NCBI GenBank assembly: GCA_043815245.1
Contig: JBDRJD010000044.1
Span: 1 to 54,434 of the forward strand
From: an archaeon
GTDB taxonomy: Archaea > Nanobdellota > Nanobdellia > Pacearchaeales > GW2011-AR1
Direction: 5' to 3'
DNA: 54,434 nt
Under the pieces are notes generated by a model. The model was not told where the DNA came from. It worked only from the letters and a program-made list of their open reading frames with translations, and did no database searches. The position numbers were made by a program, and so were the translations under genes. This document shows, in pieces, positions 11,737-36,009 of the stretch (the first letter of the stretch is position 1; each line of letters starts with the position of its first letter).

Positions 11737-11828
11737 CGCCCCTACCGGGATTCGAACCCGGGTCGCTGCCTATCTCCCGAGCACGCTCGTCGAAAGGGCA
11801 GTATCCTTGGCCGCTGGACTATAGGGGC
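11737..11828 (-). tRNA. tRNA-Glu(UUC) with a 19-nt intron at 37/38
   Basis: GCCCCTA acceptor stem, CTGCC/GGCAG anticodon stem, CT-TTC-G|intron|A, GGTTCGAATCC T-arm. Intron ACGAGCGTGCTCGGGAGAT forms a BHB-like motif. No encoded CCA. Confidence 0.93.
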
Positions 11829-11944: not shown

Positions 11945-12334
11945 TTATAGATTGATCTTGTTACCGTACTGTCCTATAACTGGTACTTCCTTCATTTCTC
12001 CGCTCAGTGCGTACACCCAGCTGATTACCCAAAGGACCAACACTACTAGGTTCAATAGCACCATAATGAACCAACCTAAGAATGGTATCCATACTATAAT
12101 TGAGTTAACAATACCTACAATTATCGCAAGTATGAAGATCACTAGTGATTGCTTTGCATAGTACATTACGTAGGCATTATCTTTCTTTGCAAGTAAGGCT
12201 ATTACAAAACCTATTATGCTCAAAAAAGTTGCTAGCCACGCAAATAACTTGCTGTCGTCTCCACTTTTCGTTGTTGCTTTTACTGGTTTCTTAACTGTTG
12301 CTTTTTTTACCTCTTTTTTAGCTTTTTTTGCCAT
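11945..12334 (-). CDS. DUF4870-like small membrane protein
   Basis: Three hydrophobic segments, YYAKQSL, IPFLGW and ALSGE.KEVPVIG; Lys-rich N-terminus. Confidence 0.75.
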   Translation of the reverse strand: MAKKAKKEVKKATVKKPVKATTKSGDDSKLFAWLATFLSIIGFVIALLAKKDNAYVMYYAKQSLVIFILAIIVGIVNSIIVWIPFLGWFIMVLLNLVVLVLWVISWVYALSGEMKEVPVIGQYGNKINL

Positions 12335-12365: not shown

Positions 12366-12474
12366 TGAGCCCACCAGGATTTGAACCTGGGACCTCCGGC
12401 TTTCTTAGCTTCTGTCTCTAGCGAGACAGGGTCATATAAGACCGGCGCTCTAGACCAGACTGAGCTATGGGCTC
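12366..12474 (-). tRNA. tRNA-Ile(UAU) with a 33-nt intron at 37/38
   Basis: GAGCCCA/TGGGCTC acceptor stem, CCGGT/GCCGG anticodon stem, CT-TAT-A|intron|A. CTTA/TAAG helix gives a canonical BHB; intron hairpin CTGTCTC/GAGACAG. Confidence 0.9.
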
Positions 12475-25700: not shown

Positions 25701-27107
25701 TGTGATGGGATAGACCAAGATTGTGATGGAAGCGATGATGAAGGTACTGATGTTGATGGTGATGGGTTCAAAGTTGAGGGAGGATTATGTGGATTAGTTG
25801 ACTGTGATGATGGAAATGAATTTGTAAATCCTTCTGCAACAGAAATTTGTGACGGTATTGATAATGATTGCAATGCCTCTACTGGAGATGGAAGTGGAGA
25901 AGCTGCACCTTTGAATTCTTTACAAGATGGTGTTTGCTCTGGAAGTTTACAGAGTTGTACCGGAAGCTGGACAGATGATTATTTGGGCGTTGCTAATTAT
26001 GAACTACTTGAAGTAAGTTGCGTTGATGTTTTAGATAATGATTGTGATGGGGAGGCAGATAATAATGATAGCGATTGCCCTATTGTGCTTCCACCAGGTG
26101 CGTTTAGTTTGTTTATTGAAGCTGAGGACTTTACTTTGAATTCTTCAATATTTAATGTTAATGCATCTAGTGGAGCATCTAGAGGAGATTATATTTATGC
26201 TGATGGGGACTTAAGTGAAAAAGTCAACCCAACTGAAGATGGAAATTATTCTGTGAGCATCCCTGCAGACGGTGTTTATGCACTTTGGGCTAGGTTGTAC
26301 GCTACAAATGAAAGCAATGATGCAATTTATATTGGTTTTGATGGAACTTATAATAGAACTTTTCCTAGTAATTGGAGTGTTTTCCAGTGGGTGTTTGTAG
26401 CTAGCTTTTCTTTAACTGAGGGAAGTCATGAAATTTTTATTAGTTATTCTGAGAATTTATCTGGAGTCGATGCATTGTTTATTACAGAGAATTTATCTTA
26501 TATACCTACTGATGATATTATTGAGTATTGTCCAAATACTATTTGTGATACAGCTAGAGGAGAGAGTTGTAGTACTTGTCCTGCTGATTGTGGCGTTTGC
26601 TCTGATGATGATAGTGATGATGATAGTGGTGGCGGAGGGGGCGGCGGAGGTGGGGGTGGCTTCCCTCCTGTAACTGGAAATGAGACTAATACAACTCAAC
26701 CAGCTCAGAATGTTACCTTGCCAGAAGGTCTAGAATGTCAGCCTGGAGCTTGTAGTTCAGAGTTGCAAATGTACTGTTCAGATGATGGACTGTGGCATGA
26801 TGAGCTGTATTGTGATAATTGTGAAGATGGAATTTGTGAAGAAGAAGTTCCTAAAGATTATAATATTCAGATATTAATTGGGGTTATTGTAGGAATCTTA
26901 GTCTTAATTGTGGCAATAAGTATTGTGTTGATTAAAGCAAAAAAGCCTAAAGTTAAATTAAGTTCTAGTAAGTATGAGGACACATTAAGGCCGTATGTAA
27001 AGAAGGCTGTAGAAAAGGGAATGAAAAAGGCAGATATTAGAAAGCAGTTAATTGATAAAAAGTGGCCAAAAGAGATTGTGGATAAAGTTCTTAGAGATGT
27101 GAGGTAA
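22749..27107 (+). CDS. Large membrane-anchored surface protein: beta-helix module, Cys/Asp-rich Ca-binding-like repeats, CBM-like domain, poly-Gly linker and C-terminal TM
   Basis: MNKRG plus a hydrophobic signal; CTVPYDNMDVYGDTTLCPG module; D.D.DG..DCDD..NPSATEIC repeats; FIEAEDF domain; TM near the C-terminus. Confidence 0.8.
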   Translation: MNKRGKNLLLVSVVIAVFLVFLVAFSLAIGTDVDEGTVVNITVEGVNCSGNMIYFNYSEIDLTGANDSINPQPLGLPTSAIFTGNKTVVEWTAQWFDDSDGDDGNNNPDLQFNASCQDDSILSNIIQINPSSSSCTVPYDNMDVYGDTTLCPGSYYLNDSDANGIIRVRNGSVTLTCAGTHIYGDADIPAGSMGIVMGTSDLTYLSDITVKGCNVSNYYYGIRANGPPFPSRTIYNLVLRNNTLNNNHYEIYLRNVVDGLIENNSLNGPGIQYDAGFAFLNVNTTTVKNNILTNTHFVIFSPSYNNLILDNLFQNFNGAATSTVNPGCNGDRIVNNTFRNTWGINIEYPLNTVIEGNFVEGSSYNCIATANPSFLTSSISILNNDLKDCGTSGISINFVNNTLVSGNNITGCNLGIWGDRSFNLKILGNNFLRNRNGGSPKAIRLARCGGTIIQGNNITDEIESIVVEDSSNMSILNNNIYSSLSSSYGIFYDTSGESLIQGNNIQLTSSGYGGIWLHPGSLGCNNNVMKNNYISGAGFGVYIWLSNNNTIEDNVIDSCFASFSDGTGINVETSSNNTFVRNNVTKNVAGIKLLYTSEDNSITDSVVCNNSLSYDVVASGSSLNNSGSDNYCQNTLNWSDNGALALNLGCDNLCYPIDCDFDNDGYDAANATCLGTDCDDDEFFTNPSATEICSDVIDNNCNNESDYDEVGGLHGDLNCPVQVLGISTSNLNPIENTNIQVNCTANPGDVNSIDVDVGGSLCSFDLWDGNIASFTCNVGLAGIKDVTCSVNHLKSYQAGVNQSTTLNVIASSCSGLTEGSCNFNPSCDWCPGCSGNQSNLIGSDACVDTGTCNYECSLTFGCSAQCDLTLGGCSDTICEDYCVGEDLYLRDDVVNDCQLGGCTCEENACLTGSQTSCGSTNCNALIHLVGSCQNPCLTQAGDDVCAGSCTPSCSCEVGWWDINGLPVDGCEYACSISNGGVEILCDGIDQDCDGSDDEGTDVDGDGFKVEGGLCGLVDCDDGNEFVNPSATEICDGIDNDCNASTGDGSGEAAPLNSLQDGVCSGSLQSCTGSWTDDYLGVANYELLEVSCVDVLDNDCDGEADNNDSDCPIVLPPGAFSLFIEAEDFTLNSSIFNVNASSGASRGDYIYADGDLSEKVNPTEDGNYSVSIPADGVYALWARLYATNESNDAIYIGFDGTYNRTFPSNWSVFQWVFVASFSLTEGSHEIFISYSENLSGVDALFITENLSYIPTDDIIEYCPNTICDTARGESCSTCPADCGVCSDDDSDDDSGGGGGGGGGGGFPPVTGNETNTTQPAQNVTLPEGLECQPGACSSELQMYCSDDGLWHDELYCDNCEDGICEEEVPKDYNIQILIGVIVGILVLIVAISIVLIKAKKPKVKLSSSKYEDTLRPYVKKAVEKGMKKADIRKQLIDKKWPKEIVDKVLRDVR

Positions 27108-27191
27108 TGGGGTTCAGGAAAAAATGGGAACATTTAGAAATTATTGAGCACTAACTGTCTCTTTGTTAAGAAAGGGAAGATCATAGCAAAG

Positions 27192-27199
27192 TTTATAAA
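27192..27199 (+). promoter_or_regulatory. TATA box of the rpl7ae operon
   Basis: TTTATAAA preceded by a purine-rich BRE-like GCAAAG. Confidence 0.6.
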
Positions 27200-27220
27200 G
27201 CTATTTTTTTATTCTTTCAT

Positions 27221-27329
27221 ATGTCAGAAATACTTTGTGAAAAACTCCATCTTTTGGGATGTTGAGAGGTATTTCTGTGCATCCTAAAGTTTTAACAAAC
27301 TGAATATCTTACTTCAGAAACTTTTTGAT
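27221..27329 (+). mobile_element. AT-bounded double-hairpin repeat element, copy 1
   Basis: ATGTCAGAAATACT...GGTATTTCTGTGCATCCTAAAGTTT...AAACTTTTTGAT; blocks shared with the copies at 28917 and 34406. Confidence 0.7.
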
Positions 27330-27350
27330 CCAATGATTTAATAGGAGGAT
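27328..27350 (+). promoter_or_regulatory. Kink-turn/K-loop overlapping the SD of rpl7ae (putative L7Ae autoregulatory site)
   Basis: ATCC-AAT-GA-TTTAATAG-GA-GGAT: 4-bp C-stem, 3-nt bulge and tandem GA/AG pairs; contains GGAGG. Confidence 0.7.
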
Positions 27351-27353
27351 AAA

Positions 27354-27647
27354 ATGACTGATTTTTATTCTTTAGTAGAAAAAGCAAGAAAAACCGGAAA
27401 AGTTGAAAAAGGCATAAATGAAGTGACAAAAGCTATAGAGAGAGGTACGGCAAAATTAGTTGTTGTTGCTAAGGATGTTGAACCTAAAGAGGTTATCCAG
27501 CATATCCCGATTTTATGTAAAGAGAAGGGCATAGAGTGTGGAGAAGTTGATAGTAAGGAGAAATTAGGGATTGTTGTTGGGATTAAGGTGCCTTGTAGCA
27601 GTGTAGCAGTTATTTCTGGTGATATTGGCGAAACTAAAAAGAAATAA
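27354..27647 (+). CDS. rpl7ae: 50S ribosomal protein L7Ae
   Basis: [32 protein letters not shown]...HIP.LC.EK. Confidence 0.95.
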
Positions 27648-27655
27648 TTTTTAAG

Positions 27656-27949
27656 ATGGGAAGTAATAAACGTACTGTAAAACAGGGTAAAGCTGAAGCA
27701 ATGAAGGGTGGTGATAAGTATACTGCTGCGGCTGTACCGGCTTCTGTTGAAGAGATAATTGGGAGAACTGGTTTTAGAGGCGAGATTACTCAAGTGAAGT
27801 GTAGACTGCTTGATGGCAGGGATAAAGGTAAGGTTATGAGAAGGAATGTTAAGGGGCCTATAAGGCTTAAGGATCTAATTCTGCTAAGGGAGACGAATAT
27901 TGAAGCTAGAAGGATTAAAAGTAAGGTTACTAAGGGGGCTTTTACTTAA
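27656..27949 (+). CDS. rps28e: 30S ribosomal protein S28e with N- and C-terminal extensions
   Basis: [35 protein letters not shown]...LRET..EARRI. Confidence 0.95.
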
Positions 27950-27950
27950 A

Positions 27951-28211
27951 ATGAGTATTAGCATCCATCCTGTTGATCAGATGAATGAAGAATTAGTTAG
28001 TAGGATTGAAACACTATTGACTGAAAATTCTTTTGCTGAACCAGAGGCTGTGAAGGTATCTAATTTAAGGGAGAGTCAAGTTGATTATTTGAGAGGTTTG
28101 TTAGAGGAGAAAGGGTATGATGTGGAGGTAGCTGCTTCAATTGTTGTAGATAATACCCATGTTGGAATTCATGATACTACTTACGTTGCGCATATCAGGA
28201 GGAAAGAATAA
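27951..28211 (+). CDS. Hypothetical protein inserted in the ribosomal operon
   Basis: ATG at 27951, 1 bp after the rps28e stop. Confidence 0.65.
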   Translation: MSISIHPVDQMNEELVSRIETLLTENSFAEPEAVKVSNLRESQVDYLRGLLEEKGYDVEVAASIVVDNTHVGIHDTTYVAHIRRKE

Positions 28212-28212
28212 A

Positions 28213-28599
28213 ATGACAAATTATGCTAGGTTTTATAGTAATACCTTGCCTGGAAAAAGAAGTGCTAGGACTTTTAATAATACTAATCAAAAAGGTCAGC
28301 TTATTGAATGTGTTCGTGATGATAATCTAGGTGTAAGGTTAGAGGATGTTGAGGGCGATGTTGTGAGATTGCAAGTTAATACTCGTGCTGTTGATTGGTA
28401 TAAAAGGGGGGAAGGATTTTCATCACCTAGAGATTATGTTAGTCACGTAGAGACTTGTTTAGGTGAGCATGGATTTTTCTCTGAGGGTGTTGAAATTCAA
28501 CCAGGAGAGAATGGGGTGTTTATTATCCAAGCTAAAAGAGGCCAGGGAATGAGATTATCTGAAAGATTAAGAACTAAAGGGGAAACTCAACCATGGTAA
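28213..28599 (+). CDS. Hypothetical protein inserted in the ribosomal operon
   Basis: ATG at 28213, 1 bp after the previous stop; overlaps the rpl24e start. Confidence 0.65.
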   Translation: MTNYARFYSNTLPGKRSARTFNNTNQKGQLIECVRDDNLGVRLEDVEGDVVRLQVNTRAVDWYKRGEGFSSPRDYVSHVETCLGEHGFFSEGVEIQPGENGVFIIQAKRGQGMRLSERLRTKGETQPW

Positions 28600-28778
28600 A
28601 ATGCACATTTTGTAAAAACGATTATGATGAGAATCATAAAGGAACTACTGTTGTAGATGTTTATGGCAAGGTAGCTCATTTTTGCTCTTCTAAATGCAGA
28701 AAAAATTCTGAGTTAGGTAGAGATGGAAGGAAGACTAATTGGGTGAGAAAAACCAAGAAGGAAAAAGAGAAAAAGTAA
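28593..28778 (+). CDS. rpl24e: 50S ribosomal protein L24e
   Basis: CTFC...G...V...G....FCSSKC.KN..LGR..RK.NW (TRASH domain). Confidence 0.92.
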   Translation: MVKCTFCKNDYDENHKGTTVVDVYGKVAHFCSSKCRKNSELGRDGRKTNWVRKTKKEKEKK

Positions 28779-28860
28779 AATATATTTTCTAATATATATT
28801 TTACATTATATATATTGGTAAGCGATTTAGGCCTTTATCGACGGTAAATTATCAGAAAGG

Positions 28861-28868
28861 TTTATAAA
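28861..28868 (+). promoter_or_regulatory. TATA box upstream of gyrB
   Basis: AGAAAGG-TTTATAAA. Confidence 0.6.
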
Positions 28869-28916
28869 GCTAGGTGTTTTTTAATAGGTAAGAAGTAGCT
28901 GAAGACTACTCTTTTT

Positions 28917-28985
28917 ATGTTAGAAATGCTAAGAGGCATTTCTGAGCATCCTAAAGTTCCGAAAGGAATTGGGGAACTTTTTGAT
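28917..28985 (+). mobile_element. AT-bounded double-hairpin repeat element, copy 2 (minimal form)
   Basis: ATGTTAGAAATGCT-AAGA-GGCATTTCTGAGCATCCTAAAGTTCC...GGAACTTTTTGAT. Confidence 0.7.
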
Positions 28986-29033
28986 CCAGCTAAATTAAAA
29001 AATCGTTATGATTGTTAGTGGAAATTATCTATA

Positions 29034-30917
29034 ATGGCAGCAGAGAATAAAAAATATGATGCAAGTGACATAAGCGTACTTGAAGGTCTAGAAGGAGTGA
29101 GGAAAAGGCCTGCGATGTATATTGGTAGCACTGGAAAAGAAGGCCTGCATCATTTAGTTTATGAGGCTGTGGATAACTCTGTTGATGAGTGTCTTGCTGG
29201 GATATGCACTAATATTAAGATTACAATCAGAAAAGATGGCAGTGTAGTTGTAGAGGATAATGGGAGAGGGATTCCTGTTGATATTCATCCTAAGTTTAAG
29301 GTACCTGCTGTAGAATTGGTTCTTTCTAAGCTTCATGCTGGTGGAAAGTTTGATAAGAAGGCTTATATGATTTCTGGAGGGTTGCATGGGGTGGGAATCA
29401 GTGTGGTTTCTGCTTTATCCAAAAAGTTTATTGTCGAAGTCAGAAAAGATGGTAAAGTACACAGTCAGGAGTTTTCAAGAGGTAAGAAAAAAAGTAATTT
29501 AAAAGTTATAGGTAAAACAGAAGAAACTGGAACAACGGTTACTTTTTGGCCTGATGATGAAATTTTTTCTATACTTAGCTTTGACTTTAATACACTTGCA
29601 ACCAGATTTAGAGAGATTGCATTTTTAAATGCTGGATTAAAGATTACTTTAAAAGATGAAACAAAAGATAAAAAAGAAGATTTCCAGTATCAGGGCGGGC
29701 TTGTTGAATTTGTTAAGTGGGTGAATAAGAATAAAGAAGCTCTTCACAAACCAATTTACTTTCAAAAGAAAGCTGATTCCGTGGTAGTTGATGTTTCTAT
29801 ACAGTATAATTCTAGCTATCAGGAAAATATTTTTGGGTTTGTTAATACAATTAATACTGTTGAGGGTGGGACGCATATTGTAGGATTTAAAACTGCCTTG
29901 ACTAGAGTAATTAATGATTATGCAAAGAAGAAAGGTATAATTAAATCTGGGAATCTTACAGGTGATGATGTTAGAGAGGGGCTTACTGCTATTGTAAGTG
30001 TTAAGATTCCTGAACCGCAGTTTGAAGGACAGACAAAAACTAAACTGGGAAATTCTGAAGTAAAGGGATATTTAGACTCAATTACTTCTTTGGCTTTATC
30101 TGAGTTTTTTGAGGAAAATCCGACAATAGCTAGGAAGATTGCTTTAAAGGCAGGTGATGCTGCCAAGGCCAGAGATGCGGCAAAAAAAGCTAAAGATCTT
30201 GTTAGGAGGAAAAGTGCATTTGGTTTATCTGGACTGCCTGGAAAGCTTGCAGATTGCTCAAAAAAGAAGGCTGATGATACTGAGTTATATATTGTAGAGG
30301 GAGAATCTGCTGCTGGTTCCTCTAAAATGGCAAGAAATAAGGAATTCCAGGCTATTTTGCCACTAAAGGGAAAAATCTTAAATGTTGAAAAATCAAACCC
30401 TGCAAAGGTTTTTGGAAATGAGGAAATAAGTAATTTAATTACTGCTATTGGAACAGGTGTTGGAGAGCAGTTTGATTTGACTAAGATTAGATATAATAAA
30501 ATTATAATTATGACAGATGCGGATGTTGATGGACAGCATATTAAGACTTTGCTTTTAACTTTCTTTTTTAGATTTATGCCTAAGATAATTGAGTCTGGTA
30601 ATGTGTATGTTGCTGTTCCGCCTTTATTTAAAGTGAGGAAGAAAAAAGACCATTATGTTTATTCAGAGTCAGCTTTGAAGAGAGTGTTAGATAAATTAGG
30701 AACTGCTAATGTTACTAGATTTAAAGGTCTTGGGGAGATGAACCCCCAGCAGTTATGGGACACTACTATGAACCCAAATTCTAGAACTTTAAAAAGAGTC
30801 AATATCGAGGATGCTGTTGAAGCTGACAGGATATTTAGTATTTTAATGGGAGACGATGTTGCTCCTAGGAAGCAGTTCATTATAGAGCATGCTCATGAGG
30901 CACTAGTGGATATTTAA
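29034..30917 (+). CDS. gyrB: DNA gyrase subunit B
   Basis: EGLEGVRKRPAMYIG, EAVDNSVDE, DNGRGIP, GGLHGVG, PGKLADC, VEGESA, PLKGKILNV, MTDADVDG and FKGLGEMN. Confidence 0.97.
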   Translation: MAAENKKYDASDISVLEGLEGVRKRPAMYIGSTGKEGLHHLVYEAVDNSVDECLAGICTNIKITIRKDGSVVVEDNGRGIPVDIHPKFKVPAVELVLSKLHAGGKFDKKAYMISGGLHGVGISVVSALSKKFIVEVRKDGKVHSQEFSRGKKKSNLKVIGKTEETGTTVTFWPDDEIFSILSFDFNTLATRFREIAFLNAGLKITLKDETKDKKEDFQYQGGLVEFVKWVNKNKEALHKPIYFQKKADSVVVDVSIQYNSSYQENIFGFVNTINTVEGGTHIVGFKTALTRVINDYAKKKGIIKSGNLTGDDVREGLTAIVSVKIPEPQFEGQTKTKLGNSEVKGYLDSITSLALSEFFEENPTIARKIALKAGDAAKARDAAKKAKDLVRRKSAFGLSGLPGKLADCSKKKADDTELYIVEGESAAGSSKMARNKEFQAILPLKGKILNVEKSNPAKVFGNEEISNLITAIGTGVGEQFDLTKIRYNKIIIMTDADVDGQHIKTLLLTFFFRFMPKIIESGNVYVAVPPLFKVRKKKDHYVYSESALKRVLDKLGTANVTRFKGLGEMNPQQLWDTTMNPNSRTLKRVNIEDAVEADRIFSILMGDDVAPRKQFIIEHAHEALVDI

Positions 30918-30918
30918 A

Positions 30919-31536
30919 ATGGTAAGTAAAACGATAAAAGCAATAATTTTTGATATGCAAGAAGTTATTTATAAAGGCAGTCTTGGAAAGGCTTTTGCCT
31001 GTAAATTATCTGATAAGTATAATATTCCTTTTGATAAAATACGCAAAGTTTATGCAGAAACATTTGACGGTTATATGACAGGAAAAGAGTCAGAACATGA
31101 TTTTCTTAAAAAATTTGTATCAAAGCTAGGAATAACCTTTAATTATAAATTATTATCTGGATTGTTTTTAAGTGCATTTGAGGAGGTTTGTTCCCCAGAT
31201 AAAGAGATTATTGATTTGATTAAAAATTTGCATGGCAAATATGATTTATTCATTGCTTCAGATCATTATAAAGAACCAATAGAATTTATGCACAATAAAT
31301 ACGATATTGGTAAGTACTTTAAGGGTATGCTTTTCTCTTATCAATTAGGGTATAGAAAGACTTCAGAAAGATTTTTTGACAAAATCCTTGAAAACTATGC
31401 TCCTGGAGAATGTGTGTTTATTGATGATACAGAAAGATATATAGATCTAGGTAACAAAATAGGATTTCACTCAATTTTATTTAAAAATAATAATCAGTTA
31501 ATCAGAGAACTAAATAAATTGGGCATAAAAAAATGA
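30919..31536 (+). CDS. HAD-superfamily hydrolase
   Basis: AIIFDM, IASD, G.RK and CVFIDD. Confidence 0.85.
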
Positions 31537-34040
31537 CACCTAAGAAATCAGAAGAAAACGGAATTGAAAAAGATATAGAAGCTGAAGCGAAGAAAGAAAT
31601 TCAGAAAGATAGCATTGATGTGAAAGGTAAGAAGATAATTGGGGCTGAGATTACCGAGGAGATGCAGAAAGCTTATATTGATTATGCCATGTCTGTTATT
31701 GTTTCTAGAGCTCTTCCAAGTGTTGAAGATGGGCTGAAACCTGTTCAAAGAAGGATTCTTTATTCTATGAACTTAATGGGGATTAAACCTGGGACACAGA
31801 CTAAGAAGAGTGCAAGAATAGTTGGCGATGTAATTGGTCGATTGCATCCTCATGGAGATTCAGCTGTTTATGATGCTTTAGTAAGAATGGCACAAGATTT
31901 CTCTTTAAGATATCCTCTGATATATGGGCAGGGAAATTTTGGTAGTCTGGACGGAGATCCTCCTGCTGCATATCGTTATACTGAAGCAAGATTAATGCCA
32001 ATTTCCATGGAGTTACTGGAGGATATTGAGAAAGATACGGTGAAATTGCTTCCTAATTTTGATAATTCTTTGAAAGAGCCTGAGACTCTTCCTGCTAAAC
32101 TGCCTCTGCTGCTTTTGAATGGAGCTACTGGAATTGCTGTAGGGATGGCTACAAATATCCCCCCACATAATTTAACTGAGATTTGCGATGCAATTATCAA
32201 ACTGATTGAAAAACCGGATGTTCAGATTGAGAAATTAATGGAAATTGTTCAAGCGCCTGATTTTCCTACAGGCGGATATGTTAGCGGGGACTTTGAAGAG
32301 CTGTATAAAAATGGGAAGGGGAGCATGACTATGAGGGGGAAGGCAGCTATTGAAGTATTGAAGAAAAAAGATGCGATTGTTATTACCGAGATTCCTTACA
32401 TGGTTAATAAGGCCACTTTAATTGAGGAGATTGCTAAGCTTGTTCAAATTAAGAAGCTTCCTGATGTTTCGGATTTAAGAGATGAGTCTTCTAAAGGTAA
32501 AGTGAGAATAGTTATTGAGTTAAGGAAGGGGGCTGATTCTAAATTTACATTAAATAGGTTATACAAGTTTACAAAACTACAGAGTAGGTTTGATGCTAAT
32601 ATGCTTGCTTTAGTTGGAGGCAAGCCTCAAGTTCTTGGTTTGAAAAAGATTCTTGAAGAATATATTAAGTATAGGAAAATTGTGGTTACAAGAAGGACTA
32701 AGTTTGAACTGAAGAAAGCAGAGGATAGATTAGAGATTGTTAAGGGATTGTTAATTGCTCTGAAAGATATTAATGAGGTGATTAGCACGATCAGAAAGTC
32801 CCCGAATACAACTGCTGCTTTGGAGAGTTTAATCAAGAGGTTTAAGCTAAGCAGAAGACAGGCCCAGGCTATTTTAGATATGAAGCTGTCTTCTTTAACA
32901 GCTTTAGAGCAGGATAAATTAAAGAAAGAAGAAAAAGATTTAGAGCAACTGATTAATGAGCTTCAGAAAATATTATCTTCAGATAGCGAGATTCTTAATG
33001 TTATCAGAAAGGAAGTTTTAGAATTAAAGAGAAAGTATGGTGATACGAGGAAGACTTATGTGCTGCAGCGAGTTAAAGAGTTAAGTGAAAAGGATTTAGT
33101 GCAGAAGAAAGATGTGGTTGTTACTATTACTGATAAAGGTTATTGCAAGAGAATTGATTTAAAGACTTATAAGGAGCAGAAGAGAGGTGGAAGGGGTGTT
33201 ATAGGGAGTGATTTGGCTACAGGGGATTTTGTTAAGCAACTAATAACTTGTTCAACCCATGACTATTTGTTATTGTTTACTTCTAAGGGAAAAGTATACT
33301 GGATGAAAGCTTATCAGCTGCCTGCTGCAGAGAGATATTCAAAAGGAAAGGCTTTGATTAATCTTGTAAATTTGAAAGATGAAACAATTCAGAGTGTTAT
33401 TCCAGTGAGTAAATTTGAGGATTTTGTAATTTTAGTTACTAAGAGGGGAGTTATTAAGAAGATGAAACTTGAAGACTTTTCAAATCCAAGAAGCACCGGA
33501 GTGAAGGCTATCAATCTTCCTGCTGATGGGAGCGATGATTTGAATGATGTTAAGGTGATTAAGGAAGGTGAGGAGATATTACTTATTTCCAAGGGGGGGC
33601 AGGCTATTAGGTTTAATAGCAAGGAAGTTAGGGCCATGGGAAGAGCTTCTTATGGTGTTACTGGAATTAAGCTTGGAAAAGGAGATGCAGTTGTAAGCTC
33701 TGAAGTACTGCCTAGTGAGAAATCAAAAGAAACAATCTTAACTATAACTGAAAAGGGATATGGTAAAAGATCTGCTGTAGGAGACTATAGGTTGACAGGA
33801 AGGGCCGGAAAAGGGGTGATAAACATTAAAGTTGGAGATAGAAATGGGCCTGTGATTACTACTGCTTGTGTAAATGATAGTGACTCTGCGATTGTTACTA
33901 CAGCCAAAGGAATGGTTATTAGGACTCCTGTAAAGAACTTGAGAGTTATGGGGAGAGCTACTCAAGGAGTTAGGATAGTTAAGTTGCAGCAAGGAGATAG
34001 AGTCACTGATTTAGTTAAGGTTCAGGAAGCTGCTCCGTAA
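31533..34040 (+). CDS. gyrA: DNA gyrase subunit A
   Basis: [33 protein letters not shown] (catalytic Tyr), GyrA-box QKRGGRG and beta-pinwheel repeats. Confidence 0.97.
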
Positions 34041-34381
34041 ATTACGCTTAGAATTATTATTTCTACTAATCCAAAGAAAAAGTATAAATTGAGTATAGCT
34101 TGGTAGTCTTTTAATAATATTGCGAGGTTAATTAGTAAGGCGAGCAAGGCAAAGAAGATTCCTATCTTGAGAGATTCTTTTAATCTGTTTTCTGAGCTGG
34201 ATTTTTTAAAGTAAAAGTGATTTGCTATTAAGATAAGTATGGCTAAGCTTGAGTAGGCTAAGCCGTAGTAGATAAGTCCGCTTATCACTCCTTGTATAAA
34301 ATAAGGAATAAGGAAGGAGTTAAATAGGGTGAATAAGATTGTGCCTATTATTCCGATTATTAAACCTCTTTTCCAATTCAT
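34022..34381 (-). CDS. 4-TM membrane protein, paralog of the upstream gene
   Basis: Hydrophobic; N.KR...IG, YF, KE.L..G and KDY.A shared with 34492..34881. Confidence 0.7.
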
Positions 34382-34405
34382 TTTTATGCCTATTTTTTCT
34401 TTATT

Positions 34406-34524
34406 ATGTCAGAAATGCTAAGCGAAAACCACATCCTTTAGGATGTGGATGAGCATTTCTGAGCATCCTAAAGTTTCACAAACCACACCTTTTAAGGTGT
34501 GGTAACACTCAGAAACTTTTTGAT
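34406..34524 (+). mobile_element. AT-bounded double-hairpin repeat element, copy 3 (inserted in the 3' end of a gene)
   Basis: ATGTCAGAAATGCT...AGCATTTCTGAGCATCCTAAAGTTTC...GAAACTTTTTGAT with inner hairpins CCACATCC-TTTA-GGATGTGG and ACCACACCTT-TT-AAGGTGTGGT. Confidence 0.75.
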
Positions 34525-34881
34525 ACCTATTAGAGTCACAGTAATTATGCCTAGCAAGATTCCTATCCATAAGTATAGGTCTCCGAAAAAAGCCGTGTAA
34601 TCTTTTACAAAAAGTGGCACAGTTATTATCAGGTCTAAGATAATCCCTGTCAGGGCCATTATTAATCCTAGTAAAAGCCCTTCTTTTGCTCCTGCCTTTA
34701 CTTTTCCTCTAAAATAAATTAAGGAGGCAATTGCTACTAGAATTACTGAAAGTATATAGTGAACAATGTAGTAAAGAGTTCCTGATTCTAATCCTAATCC
34801 AAACATTAGGATTGATACTTCAAAGAATATCAGAACCCAAAACAATGCTCCAATAAGTACCGCTCTTTTTAAGTTTACCAT
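34492..34881 (-). CDS. 4-TM membrane protein; last residues encoded by the inserted element
   Basis: Hydrophobic 129 aa; the terminal KKFLSVTTP lies inside element copy 3. Confidence 0.75.
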   Translation of the reverse strand: MVNLKRAVLIGALFWVLIFFEVSILMFGLGLESGTLYYIVHYILSVILVAIASLIYFRGKVKAGAKEGLLLGLIMALTGIILDLIITVPLFVKDYTAFFGDLYLWIGILLGIITVTLIGIKKFLSVTTP

Positions 34882-34905
34882 CTTAACTTGAAGTAAAGCT
34901 AGTTT

Positions 34906-36009
34906 TTAAATTTTCTTAGCAATCCCTATATCTGCATTTACCTCTATTAGATCATTATCTTTGAAAACCTCGGTAGCATACTTTGTGCCTACAATACATG
35001 GAATTCCAAATTCGCGTGAAATTACCGCTGCGTGGGACATCATTCCCCCCTCATCAGTCACAATTGCAGCTGCTTTTTTAATAGCTGTCATTAAATCAGG
35101 ACCTGTTGTATCTGACACTAGGATGTCCCCTTTTTCCATTTTATTGAGATATTTTTCTGGAGTTTGGGAGGTGGGGATAATTTTGACTCTTCCTTTTACT
35201 ACTCCTTTGCATGCAGAGGTTCCAATTACCTGGTTTTTTGGTATGTCTTTGTCCAATAGCCTAATTTTTTTATAAGCTTCACCCCCAGAAATTATGTTTA
35301 GGTTGTTTTTGTCAAAGGTGATATATGAATATACTTGCCTTTCAGAAACATCTTTAACTTCTTTTCCTAATAGCAGCCTTGTTATCTCTTCAACAGTCAT
35401 TGAGTGGGCGTCTACTCTCTTTGTCCTTTTGATTGATTCTTGTAATGACTGGATAAACAAAGAATTCTCTCCCAAGGCTACCTCTGTAATCATCTCTCTA
35501 AACTTTAGCTTTAAATGCTGCATATTAATCAGATAGTCGGCAAGTTTTCTATATTCTGGAGGCCAGGTAGTTAAATCCGCCTCTCCTGAAAGCACTTCAT
35601 CAAATGAGTGTTTATCCTCAATATATTCCTGAACTACTTTTTCAATTTTTGCAAAATAAATAAACTCAGTTTCTTTGTATGTATTAAAGAAATCTGAAAA
35701 GAGAAGCTTAAATTCTATTAGAAATGTTATGAAATTTTTGTTATCAAGTTCTTTTATTTTAATTTTCTTGATTTTTTTTATTTTCTCTAGAAAAATCGGG
35801 TATTTTGATTCTTGTTCCCTGTACTTGTCTTCTGAAAGGGCAAATTCATAACCTGCTTGAGCTATTTTGCGGAGATTTTCCTCAGACATGAGAAATTCCC
35901 ACTTACCATTTTTGATTGTTACAATGGGATAAAATGTACTGTATGCTGGAACAAGCATATCAGTCATAAAAACATTAGATTCAGGGAGTTTGAAGATTAA
36001 TTCATACAT
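34906..36009 (-). CDS. Protein with a C-terminal PEP-utilising phospho-His (swivelling) domain
   Basis: GTSACKG.VKG.VKI, GDILV..TT.P and TDEGGMMSHAAVISREFGIPCIVGT. Confidence 0.88.
   Translation of the reverse strand: MYELIFKLPESNVFMTDMLVPAYSTFYPIVTIKNGKWEFLMSEENLRKIAQAGYEFALSEDKYREQESKYPIFLEKIKKIKKIKIKELDNKNFITFLIEFKLLFSDFFNTYKETEFIYFAKIEKVVQEYIEDKHSFDEVLSGEADLTTWPPEYRKLADYLINMQHLKLKFREMITEVALGENSLFIQSLQESIKRTKRVDAHSMTVEEITRLLLGKEVKDVSERQVYSYITFDKNNLNIISGGEAYKKIRLLDKDIPKNQVIGTSACKGVVKGRVKIIPTSQTPEKYLNKMEKGDILVSDTTGPDLMTAIKKAAAIVTDEGGMMSHAAVISREFGIPCIVGTKYATEVFKDNDLIEVNADIGIAKKI

Follow-up and report, generated by a model that had tools for sequence, protein, structure and literature searches.

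What are the three short, non-coding repeats, each able to fold into two successive hairpins, that lie between positions 27,221 and 34,524 of contig JBDRJD010000044.1 (assembly GCA_043815245.1), from an archaeon of the Nanobdellia (Pacearchaeales, GW2011-AR1)? A preliminary description of this 54,434-nt stretch of DNA (hereafter the window) left two answers side by side, a non-autonomous element mobilized in trans and a structured leader RNA. Small-genome archaea of this kind are thought to hold little mobile DNA. We find that the repeats are a real, structured, gene-less and non-autonomous family of mobile DNA: they are multi-copy, lie between genes in either orientation, differ at four sites between two congeneric genomes and have amplified in bursts, all of which bears out the first answer.

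The three copies lie on the plus strand exactly where the preliminary description had placed them (Table 1) and share the skeleton it gave, ATGTYAGAAAT...ATTTCTGWGCATCCTAAAGTT...AACTTTTTGAT, with variable loops between the fixed parts. A search of the window for the 23-nt core, allowing up to three mismatches, returned exactly these three sites, and none in 100 shuffles. Every copy has four parts, namely a 5′ arm (ATGTYAGAAAT...), the partner of that arm (...ATTTCTGWGCAT), the center GCATCC, and a second hairpin (TAAAGTTYY...RRAACTTT) followed by TTGAT. The central AT is able to pair with the 5′ terminal AT and so closes hairpin 1, and the central ATC is able to pair with the 3′ terminal GAT and so closes hairpin 2. 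The loops had been said to carry hairpins of their own, which is true of both loops in copies 1 and 3 and of neither in copy 2. As had been claimed, no copy contains an open reading frame (ORF) of its own, and the ORF list of the window shows only mechanical overlaps with them. Among Rfam families at their gathering thresholds only two tRNAs pass in the window and no family corresponds to the element; at E <= 10, over positions 27000-34800, no match follows the element either. The only Rfam match overlapping a copy is SNORA68 on the minus strand (27139-27270; 32.3 bits against a gathering score of 43), which covers the flank upstream of copy 1 and some of the copy itself.

Compensatory changes give the two-hairpin fold strong support, and the earlier claim that both stems covary holds well beyond the window. 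When 21 copies from 10 genomes are aligned with MAFFT, 95.4% of the cells are paired compared with 84.1% after shuffling, a level matched by 0 of 500 shuffles; both sides have changed in 18 of the 37 pairs, and slid controls are 35-47% paired. In a larger set of 58 distinct copies, aligned by fitting to the covariance model and hence biased towards structure, 95.6% of the cells are paired compared with 73.2% after shuffling, and 33 of the 37 pairs have changed on both sides. Within helix 4, the stem of hairpin 2, this is true of seven of the eight pairs. The stem of hairpin 2 varies freely from genome to genome, and the 5′, central and 3′ AT are almost invariant. The pair formed by the central C and the 3′ G is swapped to G and C (ATG/CAT) in 4 of the 58 copies, and one copy, in genome G079, shows a joint change of the 5′ end, center and 3′ end (AC / GT / AC), which we regard as a lead rather than a result. 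Folded as DNA, the plus strands of copies 1, 2 and 3 have z-scores of -2.65, -4.84 and -7.01, with a folding energy of -28.1 kcal/mol for copy 3. The absence of terminal inverted repeats had also been noted, and there is indeed no true one; there is nevertheless a weak likeness between the termini, as the first 14 nt match the reverse complement of the last 14 at a mean of 7.1 positions in 40 copies (maximum 10), against 4.4 after shuffling.

The family is larger than the three copies first described. The genome to which the window belongs as contig C44 (hereafter G000; 0.92 Mb in 45 contigs, 85.7% complete, GC content 36%) carries 17 copies, 16 of them at loci found by a covariance model built from 21 copies (R1; cut-off E <= 1e-3) and one a recombinant copy (C31:17592-17706) found through its end motifs. 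The model scan that had been suggested thus recovered further copies here and in relatives, and no Rfam family was matched. Copies are 59-283 nt long, the long forms carrying extra hairpins between the main hairpins or inside the loops, and they show both nested insertions and internal deletions. One nested insertion is a module of about 51 nt, consisting of two small hairpins (TCAA..TTGA - TGACTA - TCAG..CTGA), which sits in element loops in either orientation (G000:C27:745-1027 and G000:C41:~11997-12181, and loci L020, L035 and L044 of the congener G001). The type of inner hairpin with a TTTA loop is confined in G000 to element copies (7 places, or 14 rows with both strands counted), and neither this hairpin nor the nested module was found on its own in that genome. 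Comparing G000 with itself by BLAST revealed no other abundant repeat and no repeated insertion sequence (IS). All of the 13 copies examined first are intergenic and their orientation to genes is mixed: seven lie upstream of a gene in the same orientation, five are antisense to both neighbors, and one lies within a tRNA intron. The last is a 73-nt copy on the minus strand (C4:10802-10874) held antisense in the 137-nt intron of a tRNA-Tyr(GTA) gene (G000:C4:10731-10939).

About 25 other genomes, all of the same archaeal class, carry variants of the element. Core matches were found in 16 of 61 relatives, and inspection showed 11 of these to be true and five to be chance. Model R1 found variants in 10 of 151 genomes of a phylum-wide sample, every match being in the same class, and, of a second 151 genomes sampled at class level, in 9 (G000 counted in both). 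The loops drift, but several families of the class keep the same end and center motifs. The richest genome, G258 (0.7 Mb, 96% complete), holds at least 22 copies with mutual identities of 88-98% (loci include L100, L106, L109 and L111-L119), a lineage-specific burst of a 141-nt subfamily; this subfamily was not seen in ten congeners. The partial copies found in G258 do not represent ends separated by a gene; they are internal deletions by which a hairpin collapses, and they show how reduced forms come about. Genome G250 contains three near-identical copies of only 62-63 nt at separate loci. Among viral contigs there were two exact 17-mer matches, neither of them scored by the model and one of them (L144) inside an ORF.

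Gain and loss of copies can be read directly from comparison with G001. Copy 2 is missing at the orthologous site upstream of gyrB in this congener, where the flanks align on both sides. Copy 1 is likewise missing at its orthologous site, which reads ...TTTTTAT|CCAATGA when empty in G001 and ...TTTCATAT[GTCAG...TTTTTGAT]CCAATGA when filled in G000, so that AT occurs once at the empty site and twice, at both ends, at the filled one. The reverse case also exists, in that the orthologous sites of G000 (C20 and C13) lack two copies that G001 has on its contigs C8 and C10. Around copy 3 synteny with G001 breaks and no empty site can be read, and none of the compared sites has a copy shared between the two congeners. 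Four copies are therefore present in only one of two congeners, which marks the family as mobile DNA and not as a fixed leader RNA. The empty G001 sites conserve the TATA-like boxes that lie upstream of copies 1 and 2, which assigns these boxes to the host genes. In the L7Ae-family leader of G001 (G001:C4, L039, about 2090-2180, corresponding to window positions 27330-27353) there is also an additional hairpin, about 50 nt long, with no counterpart in G000. Contigs assembled from four DNA runs over positions 26500-35000 showed no joint at the element ends, and as they comprised only low-depth pieces they are uninformative either way. The public runs listed as containing sequences of this genome include none of RNA.

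These junctions bear on how the element chooses its target. Empty orthologous sites with a single AT had been proposed as a check on mobility, and of the four empty sites that we identified one has the single AT. The junction of copy 1 fits the retention of a target oligonucleotide and a 2-bp duplication alike; the suggestion of a recombinase acting at a 2-nt AT core fits this site and is ambiguous at the other three. The preliminary description had every copy starting and ending with AT after a T-rich flank. This is correct for the nearly invariant terminal AT and for the left flank, where T occupies position -2 in 33 of 43 copies and position -1 in 30 of 43 (background T 0.32); the right flank is T-rich to a slight degree only. 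In about three quarters of the 43 copies the invariant AT is preceded by TT, one of the four empty sites reads ...TTAT|, and the left junction ...TT|AT-G resembles the element's own 3′ end, ...TTTTTG-AT.

How, then, might a gene-less element of this kind move? We tentatively propose, as the leading candidate though short of an even chance, that it is a single-strand element resembling palindrome-associated transposable elements (PATEs) and REPs that is moved in trans by a Y1 (HUH) transposase, while acknowledging that the link to Y1 is weak. According to this proposal one DNA strand would fold, with hairpin 1 closed by the 5′ ATGT and the central GCAT and hairpin 2 by the central ATC and the 3′ GAT, and the folded strand would travel as IS200/IS605 passengers (PATEs) or REPs do. 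A small Y1 transposase would cut 3′ of the left ...TTAT and 3′ of the right ...TTGAT, and the strand would be pasted 3′ of another ...TT(AT) site with no target duplication. The pairing of both ends with the center would be the counterpart of the pairing between guide and cleavage site in IS608. Copies 1 and 2 went in between a putative promoter and a start codon, so that the 5′ leaders of gyrB and the L7Ae operon now include them; this leader position reflects where they happened to insert and serves no function in our reading.

Several observations point to Y1. No mobilizer lies within the window, as had been noted, and the genome outside it offers a single intact Y1 transposase, on the small contig C33, together with an IS110-like gene on contig C6. 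The optional inner hairpins had been likened to subterminal palindromes of IS200/IS605 elements, and real elements bear this out: IS200-like elements of relatives have left-end and right-end palindromes with TTTA loops and GAAA-type 5′ flanks, the same features that the inner hairpins show. Three of these IS200-like elements are preceded on the left by ...T(T/A)AT, and a copy in G189 shares a 22-nt identity with the right-end palindrome of an IS in G006. A Y1 gene is found in 7 of 11 relatives with the element compared with 9 of 50 without it, although kin are not independent. At the right end the terminal GAT finds its partner in an ATC 5′ of hairpin 2, as in the layout of IS608. The 3′ ends of two tnpA genes (L055 in G006 and L056 in G055) are a separate observation: a stretch of 11-12 nt in the codons of their catalytic-tyrosine motif (Y V R N Q) is the same as in the 5′ end of the element, a likeness that may be chance or a trace of origin.

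A considerable body of evidence weighs against a Y1 transposase acting on one strand. The element termini lie beside a Y1 transposase at 0 of the 25 loci examined, so that the suggested check for copies flanking a transposase gene found none there. Among mostly >=90% complete genomes a Y1 gene is present in 4 of 9 with the element and 36 of 141 without it, which is no clear excess, and no Y1 gene was found in G258, the richest genome, or in G133 (100% complete, 5 matches). The forms in G250 that lack IS200-like inner hairpins still amplify, and these hairpins are thus not required. At the left end the guide test fails, the partner GCAT sitting 3′ of hairpin 1, and the putative cut sites are at the feet of the hairpins, unlike those of IS608. 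At three of the four empty sites divergence prevents the junction from being placed to the exact base. The fold had been called strand-specific, which its energy does not support, since the minus strands of copies 1, 2 and 3 (z-scores -2.72, -3.94 and -7.64) fold as well as the plus strands. By our own tally orientation is concordant in 12 of 19 contigs with several copies, which shows no clear strand bias. What does stand of the claim is that 41 of 58 copies conserve a T.G pair close to the base of hairpin 1, the sole sign that one strand matters.

Other known enzymes fit no better. TnpB (PF07282) was found neither in G000 nor, above cut-off, in G258, G250, G133, G044 or G032. Of the 61 relatives 5 have an IS110 domain, among them 2 of the 11 that bear the element; the domain was found in 0 of 4 element-rich genomes besides G000, and resolvases gave only marginal matches, so that neither IS110 nor resolvase tracks the element. 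In G258 none of the genes for Y1, TnpB, IS110 or resolvase was found.

We therefore have to weigh the possibility that the same mobile element is served by another enzyme, either an undescribed HUH or single-strand nuclease or a recombinase of the IS110 or serine type acting at the 2-nt AT, and possibly encoded on an unbinned plasmid or virus. The lack of common termini at the Y1 loci, the faint association with Y1 in high-quality genomes, the amplification of minimal forms, the AT that copy 1 has at both ends and its empty site only once, and G258, with its fresh copies and none of the four genes found, speak for such an enzyme. The distribution of IS110 and resolvase genes does not, nor do the freely covarying stems, which suggest that a single strand folds and not that a recombinase acts on a double-stranded site, and the absence of a gene from a binned metagenome genome is weak evidence. 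We consider this a serious competitor and favor Y1 acting in trans over it. In a bolder version of our own, the element would be a new type of self-guided mini-transposon, in which the central GCATCC of a unit about 60 nt long pairs with both ends and with the T-rich ...AT target, and which is worked by an enzyme other than the known Y1, TnpB, IS110 and serine types. This would explain both fresh bursts in genomes where none of the known enzymes was found and the amplification of palindrome-less forms, and we judge it rather unlikely. Derivation from the IS110 family with its bridge RNA was considered and rejected, given how few element-bearing and element-rich genomes hold a DEDD recombinase (2 of 11 and, G000 aside, 0 of 4).

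The remaining readings would take mobility out of the foreground. Perhaps the element is REP-like and kept by its host for a cellular job, such as RNA 3′-end formation or stability, termination at the T run, or binding of chromatin proteins or topoisomerase, and spreads only rarely. Bacterial REPs do have cellular roles, according to the portion of the literature consulted here (PMC8266576), each copy of the element has at its end a hairpin and then 5-7 consecutive T, its end and center motifs persist while the loops drift, and copies survive in genomes with no detectable transposase. However, the patchy distribution in both samples of 151 genomes, the want of any copy shared between congeners at the compared sites, the mixed orientation to genes and the selfish look of near-identical bursts all tell against a host function, which we regard as improbable. 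Least probable of all is that the repeats are a structured non-coding RNA, whether a leader or cis-regulator or a family of small RNA genes whose copies are paralogs. Strong covariation, a T.G pair that would be G.U in RNA, the share of copies that are upstream of and co-oriented with a gene, and the position of copies 1 and 2 inside 5′ leaders could all be so explained. Yet Rfam gave no match for the element even at the relaxed threshold, copies lie antisense to both neighbors and antisense in a tRNA intron, the TATA-like boxes are those of the host genes, presence differs between congeners, and copies carry nested insertions and internal deletions. The leader-RNA alternative in the preliminary description is thus not supported. 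C/D-box, H/ACA, K-turn and hammerhead cores, compared by eye with consensus motifs, do not fit.

Table 1. Element copies, their parts in copy 3, and adjoining host features; positions are those of the window.
Feature	Position	Strand	Remarks
Copy 1 (109 nt)	27221..27329	+	Between TATA-like box and start codon of the L7Ae-family gene; model R1 75.5 bits
Copy 2 (69 nt), reduced form without TTTA-loop inner hairpins	28917..28985	+	Between TATA-like box and gyrB start codon; model R1 56.1 bits
Copy 3 (119 nt), full form	34406..34524	+	Between two minus-strand ORFs; model R1 119.7 bits
Hairpin 1 of copy 3	34406..34466	+	Outer stem ATGTCAGAAATGCT / AGCATTTCTG-A-GCAT, with bulged A and T.G pair; DNA fold
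Inner hairpin 1 of copy 3, CCACATCC-TTTA-GGATGTGG	34429..34448	+	Optional in the family; helix 3, covaries
Central GCATCC of copy 3	34463..34468	+	Alignment columns invariant
Hairpin 2 of copy 3, ATC-CT-AAAGTTTC...GAAACTTT-TT-GAT	34465..34524	+	2x2 internal loop; DNA fold
Inner hairpin 2 of copy 3, CCACACC-TTTTAA-GGTGTGG	34483..34502	+	Optional; helix 5
TATA-like box TTTATAAA of the L7Ae operon	27192..27199	+	Belongs to host, not element; conserved in G001 without the element; putative promoter
TATA-like box TTTATAAA upstream of gyrB	28861..28868	+	Belongs to host, not element; conserved in G001 without the element; putative promoter
L7Ae-family ribosomal protein gene, downstream of copy 1	27354..27647	+	Pfam PF01248, E 9.7e-27
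DNA gyrase B gene, downstream of copy 2	29034..30917	+	Pfam PF00204, E 6e-60, plus further gyrB domains

Some further observations concern the genome more widely. The IS110-like gene of contig C6 belongs to an IS110/IS1111-like element (G000:C6:1-1500, L125) with a frame of 333 codons (about 243-1235) that matches a DEDD transposase. This element has subterminal inverted repeats and a downstream non-coding region conserved with its homologue in G054, and no Rfam family fits it. It seemingly sits inside hairpin 2 of a divergent double-hairpin copy, read by eye (ATGC...GGCATCCTAAG upstream, the matching arm and GAT downstream) and given no score by the model. As a source of the double-hairpin element it was rejected, since its ends differ. 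At G000:C32:2-559 a frame that runs off the contig end resembles, by eye, a fragment of a DDE transposase. The two tRNA genes of the window (11737-11828 and 12366-12474, minus strand) are 92 and 109 nt long and probably bear introns; both are found by Rfam, and ARAGORN in its default mode finds only tRNA-Arg. Sequences of G000 turn up in groundwater and biofilm metagenome runs.

No repeat is more common than this element in the 0.92 Mb genome of G000, and a genome of 0.7 Mb holds at least 22 copies of it. Because it lies in the leaders of essential genes (gyrB and the L7Ae operon) and in a tRNA intron, it can affect expression and disrupt assemblies. Being very small and having clean pairing rules, with two hairpins, one shared center and covarying end pairs, it makes a compact model of how single-strand elements recognize ends and targets, and if the enzyme proves new it would open the way to a novel activity for cutting and joining DNA. 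The covariance model marks a repeat family that is missed by Rfam and probably by IS finders.

Which known systems does the family resemble? In the limited collection of literature searched, no description of a double-hairpin family of this kind was found. Classical MITEs, or miniature inverted-repeat transposable elements, have terminal inverted repeats and a target duplication. Like them, the element is small, non-coding, amplified and intergenic and would depend on an enzyme in trans; unlike them, it shows weak terminal likeness, no variable duplication and freely covarying stems. To our knowledge the binding site of a DDE transposase would not permit such free covariation. A MITE derived from a DDE transposon was considered and rejected, as the termini form no matching inverted repeats and the self-comparison of G000 shows no repeated IS.

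Closer parallels are found among elements that move as single strands. IS608, a member of the IS200/IS605 family with single-strand transposition of the 'peel and paste' kind, in the part of the account that describes its targeting (PMC5934647), inserts 3′ of TTAC, has guides 5′ of each hairpin and cut sites outside the hairpins, and has its ends recognized by base pairing. On that description the element resembles IS608 and ISDra2 in its hairpins folded from one strand, in a putative insertion 3′ of a short left-flank oligonucleotide, in ends paired with internal sequence and in a possible lack of duplication. It differs in its plain Watson-Crick pairing, in the single center that serves both ends, and in having no tnpA or tnpB of its own.

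REPs, as far as the source consulted describes them (PMC8266576), have a conserved dinucleotide that is cut 5′ and 3′ of the hairpin, and a TTTA loop is essential in one REP that was studied. Within that description the element shares with REPs and REPINs the character of short, multi-copy intergenic hairpins in which stem irregularities and loop bases are conserved, REPs being single-strand substrates of Y1 enzymes. Unlike REPs, however, its copies start with ATGT or ATGC and have no GTAG (or CGTC) tag, and it consists of two different hairpins in tandem on one strand, not of inverted REPs that form one long hairpin as in a REPIN. None of the 25 Y1 loci has the layout of a REPtron, as a REP/RAYT system would, and genomes hold 1-22 copies, not hundreds.

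The PATEs of Haloquadratum walsbyi, as portrayed in the part of the published account used here (PMC3119063), are passengers of the IS200/IS605 type with no inverted repeats and no duplication. They have near-terminal palindromes like those of IS605-type elements, include seemingly mobile 52-bp forms that consist of termini only, have palindromes targeted by small repeats (SMR-A), and are mobilized despite broken IS200-type genes. Judged on this description, the likeness extends to the missing ORF, the lack of true terminal inverted repeats, palindromes near both termini, very short forms that look mobile, internal deletions, and an intact IS200-type gene that is hard to find; even the nested module of about 51 nt parallels the small repeats that hit PATE palindromes. 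By the same account the two differ in that the ends of our element are paired into two hairpins sharing one central AT, that an IS with the same termini is seen at 0 of 25 loci, that palindrome-less forms amplify, and that the hosts are small-genome archaea of another class. On balance the comparison suggests that, of the systems considered, the double-hairpin family is closest to PATEs and REP-type single-strand elements.

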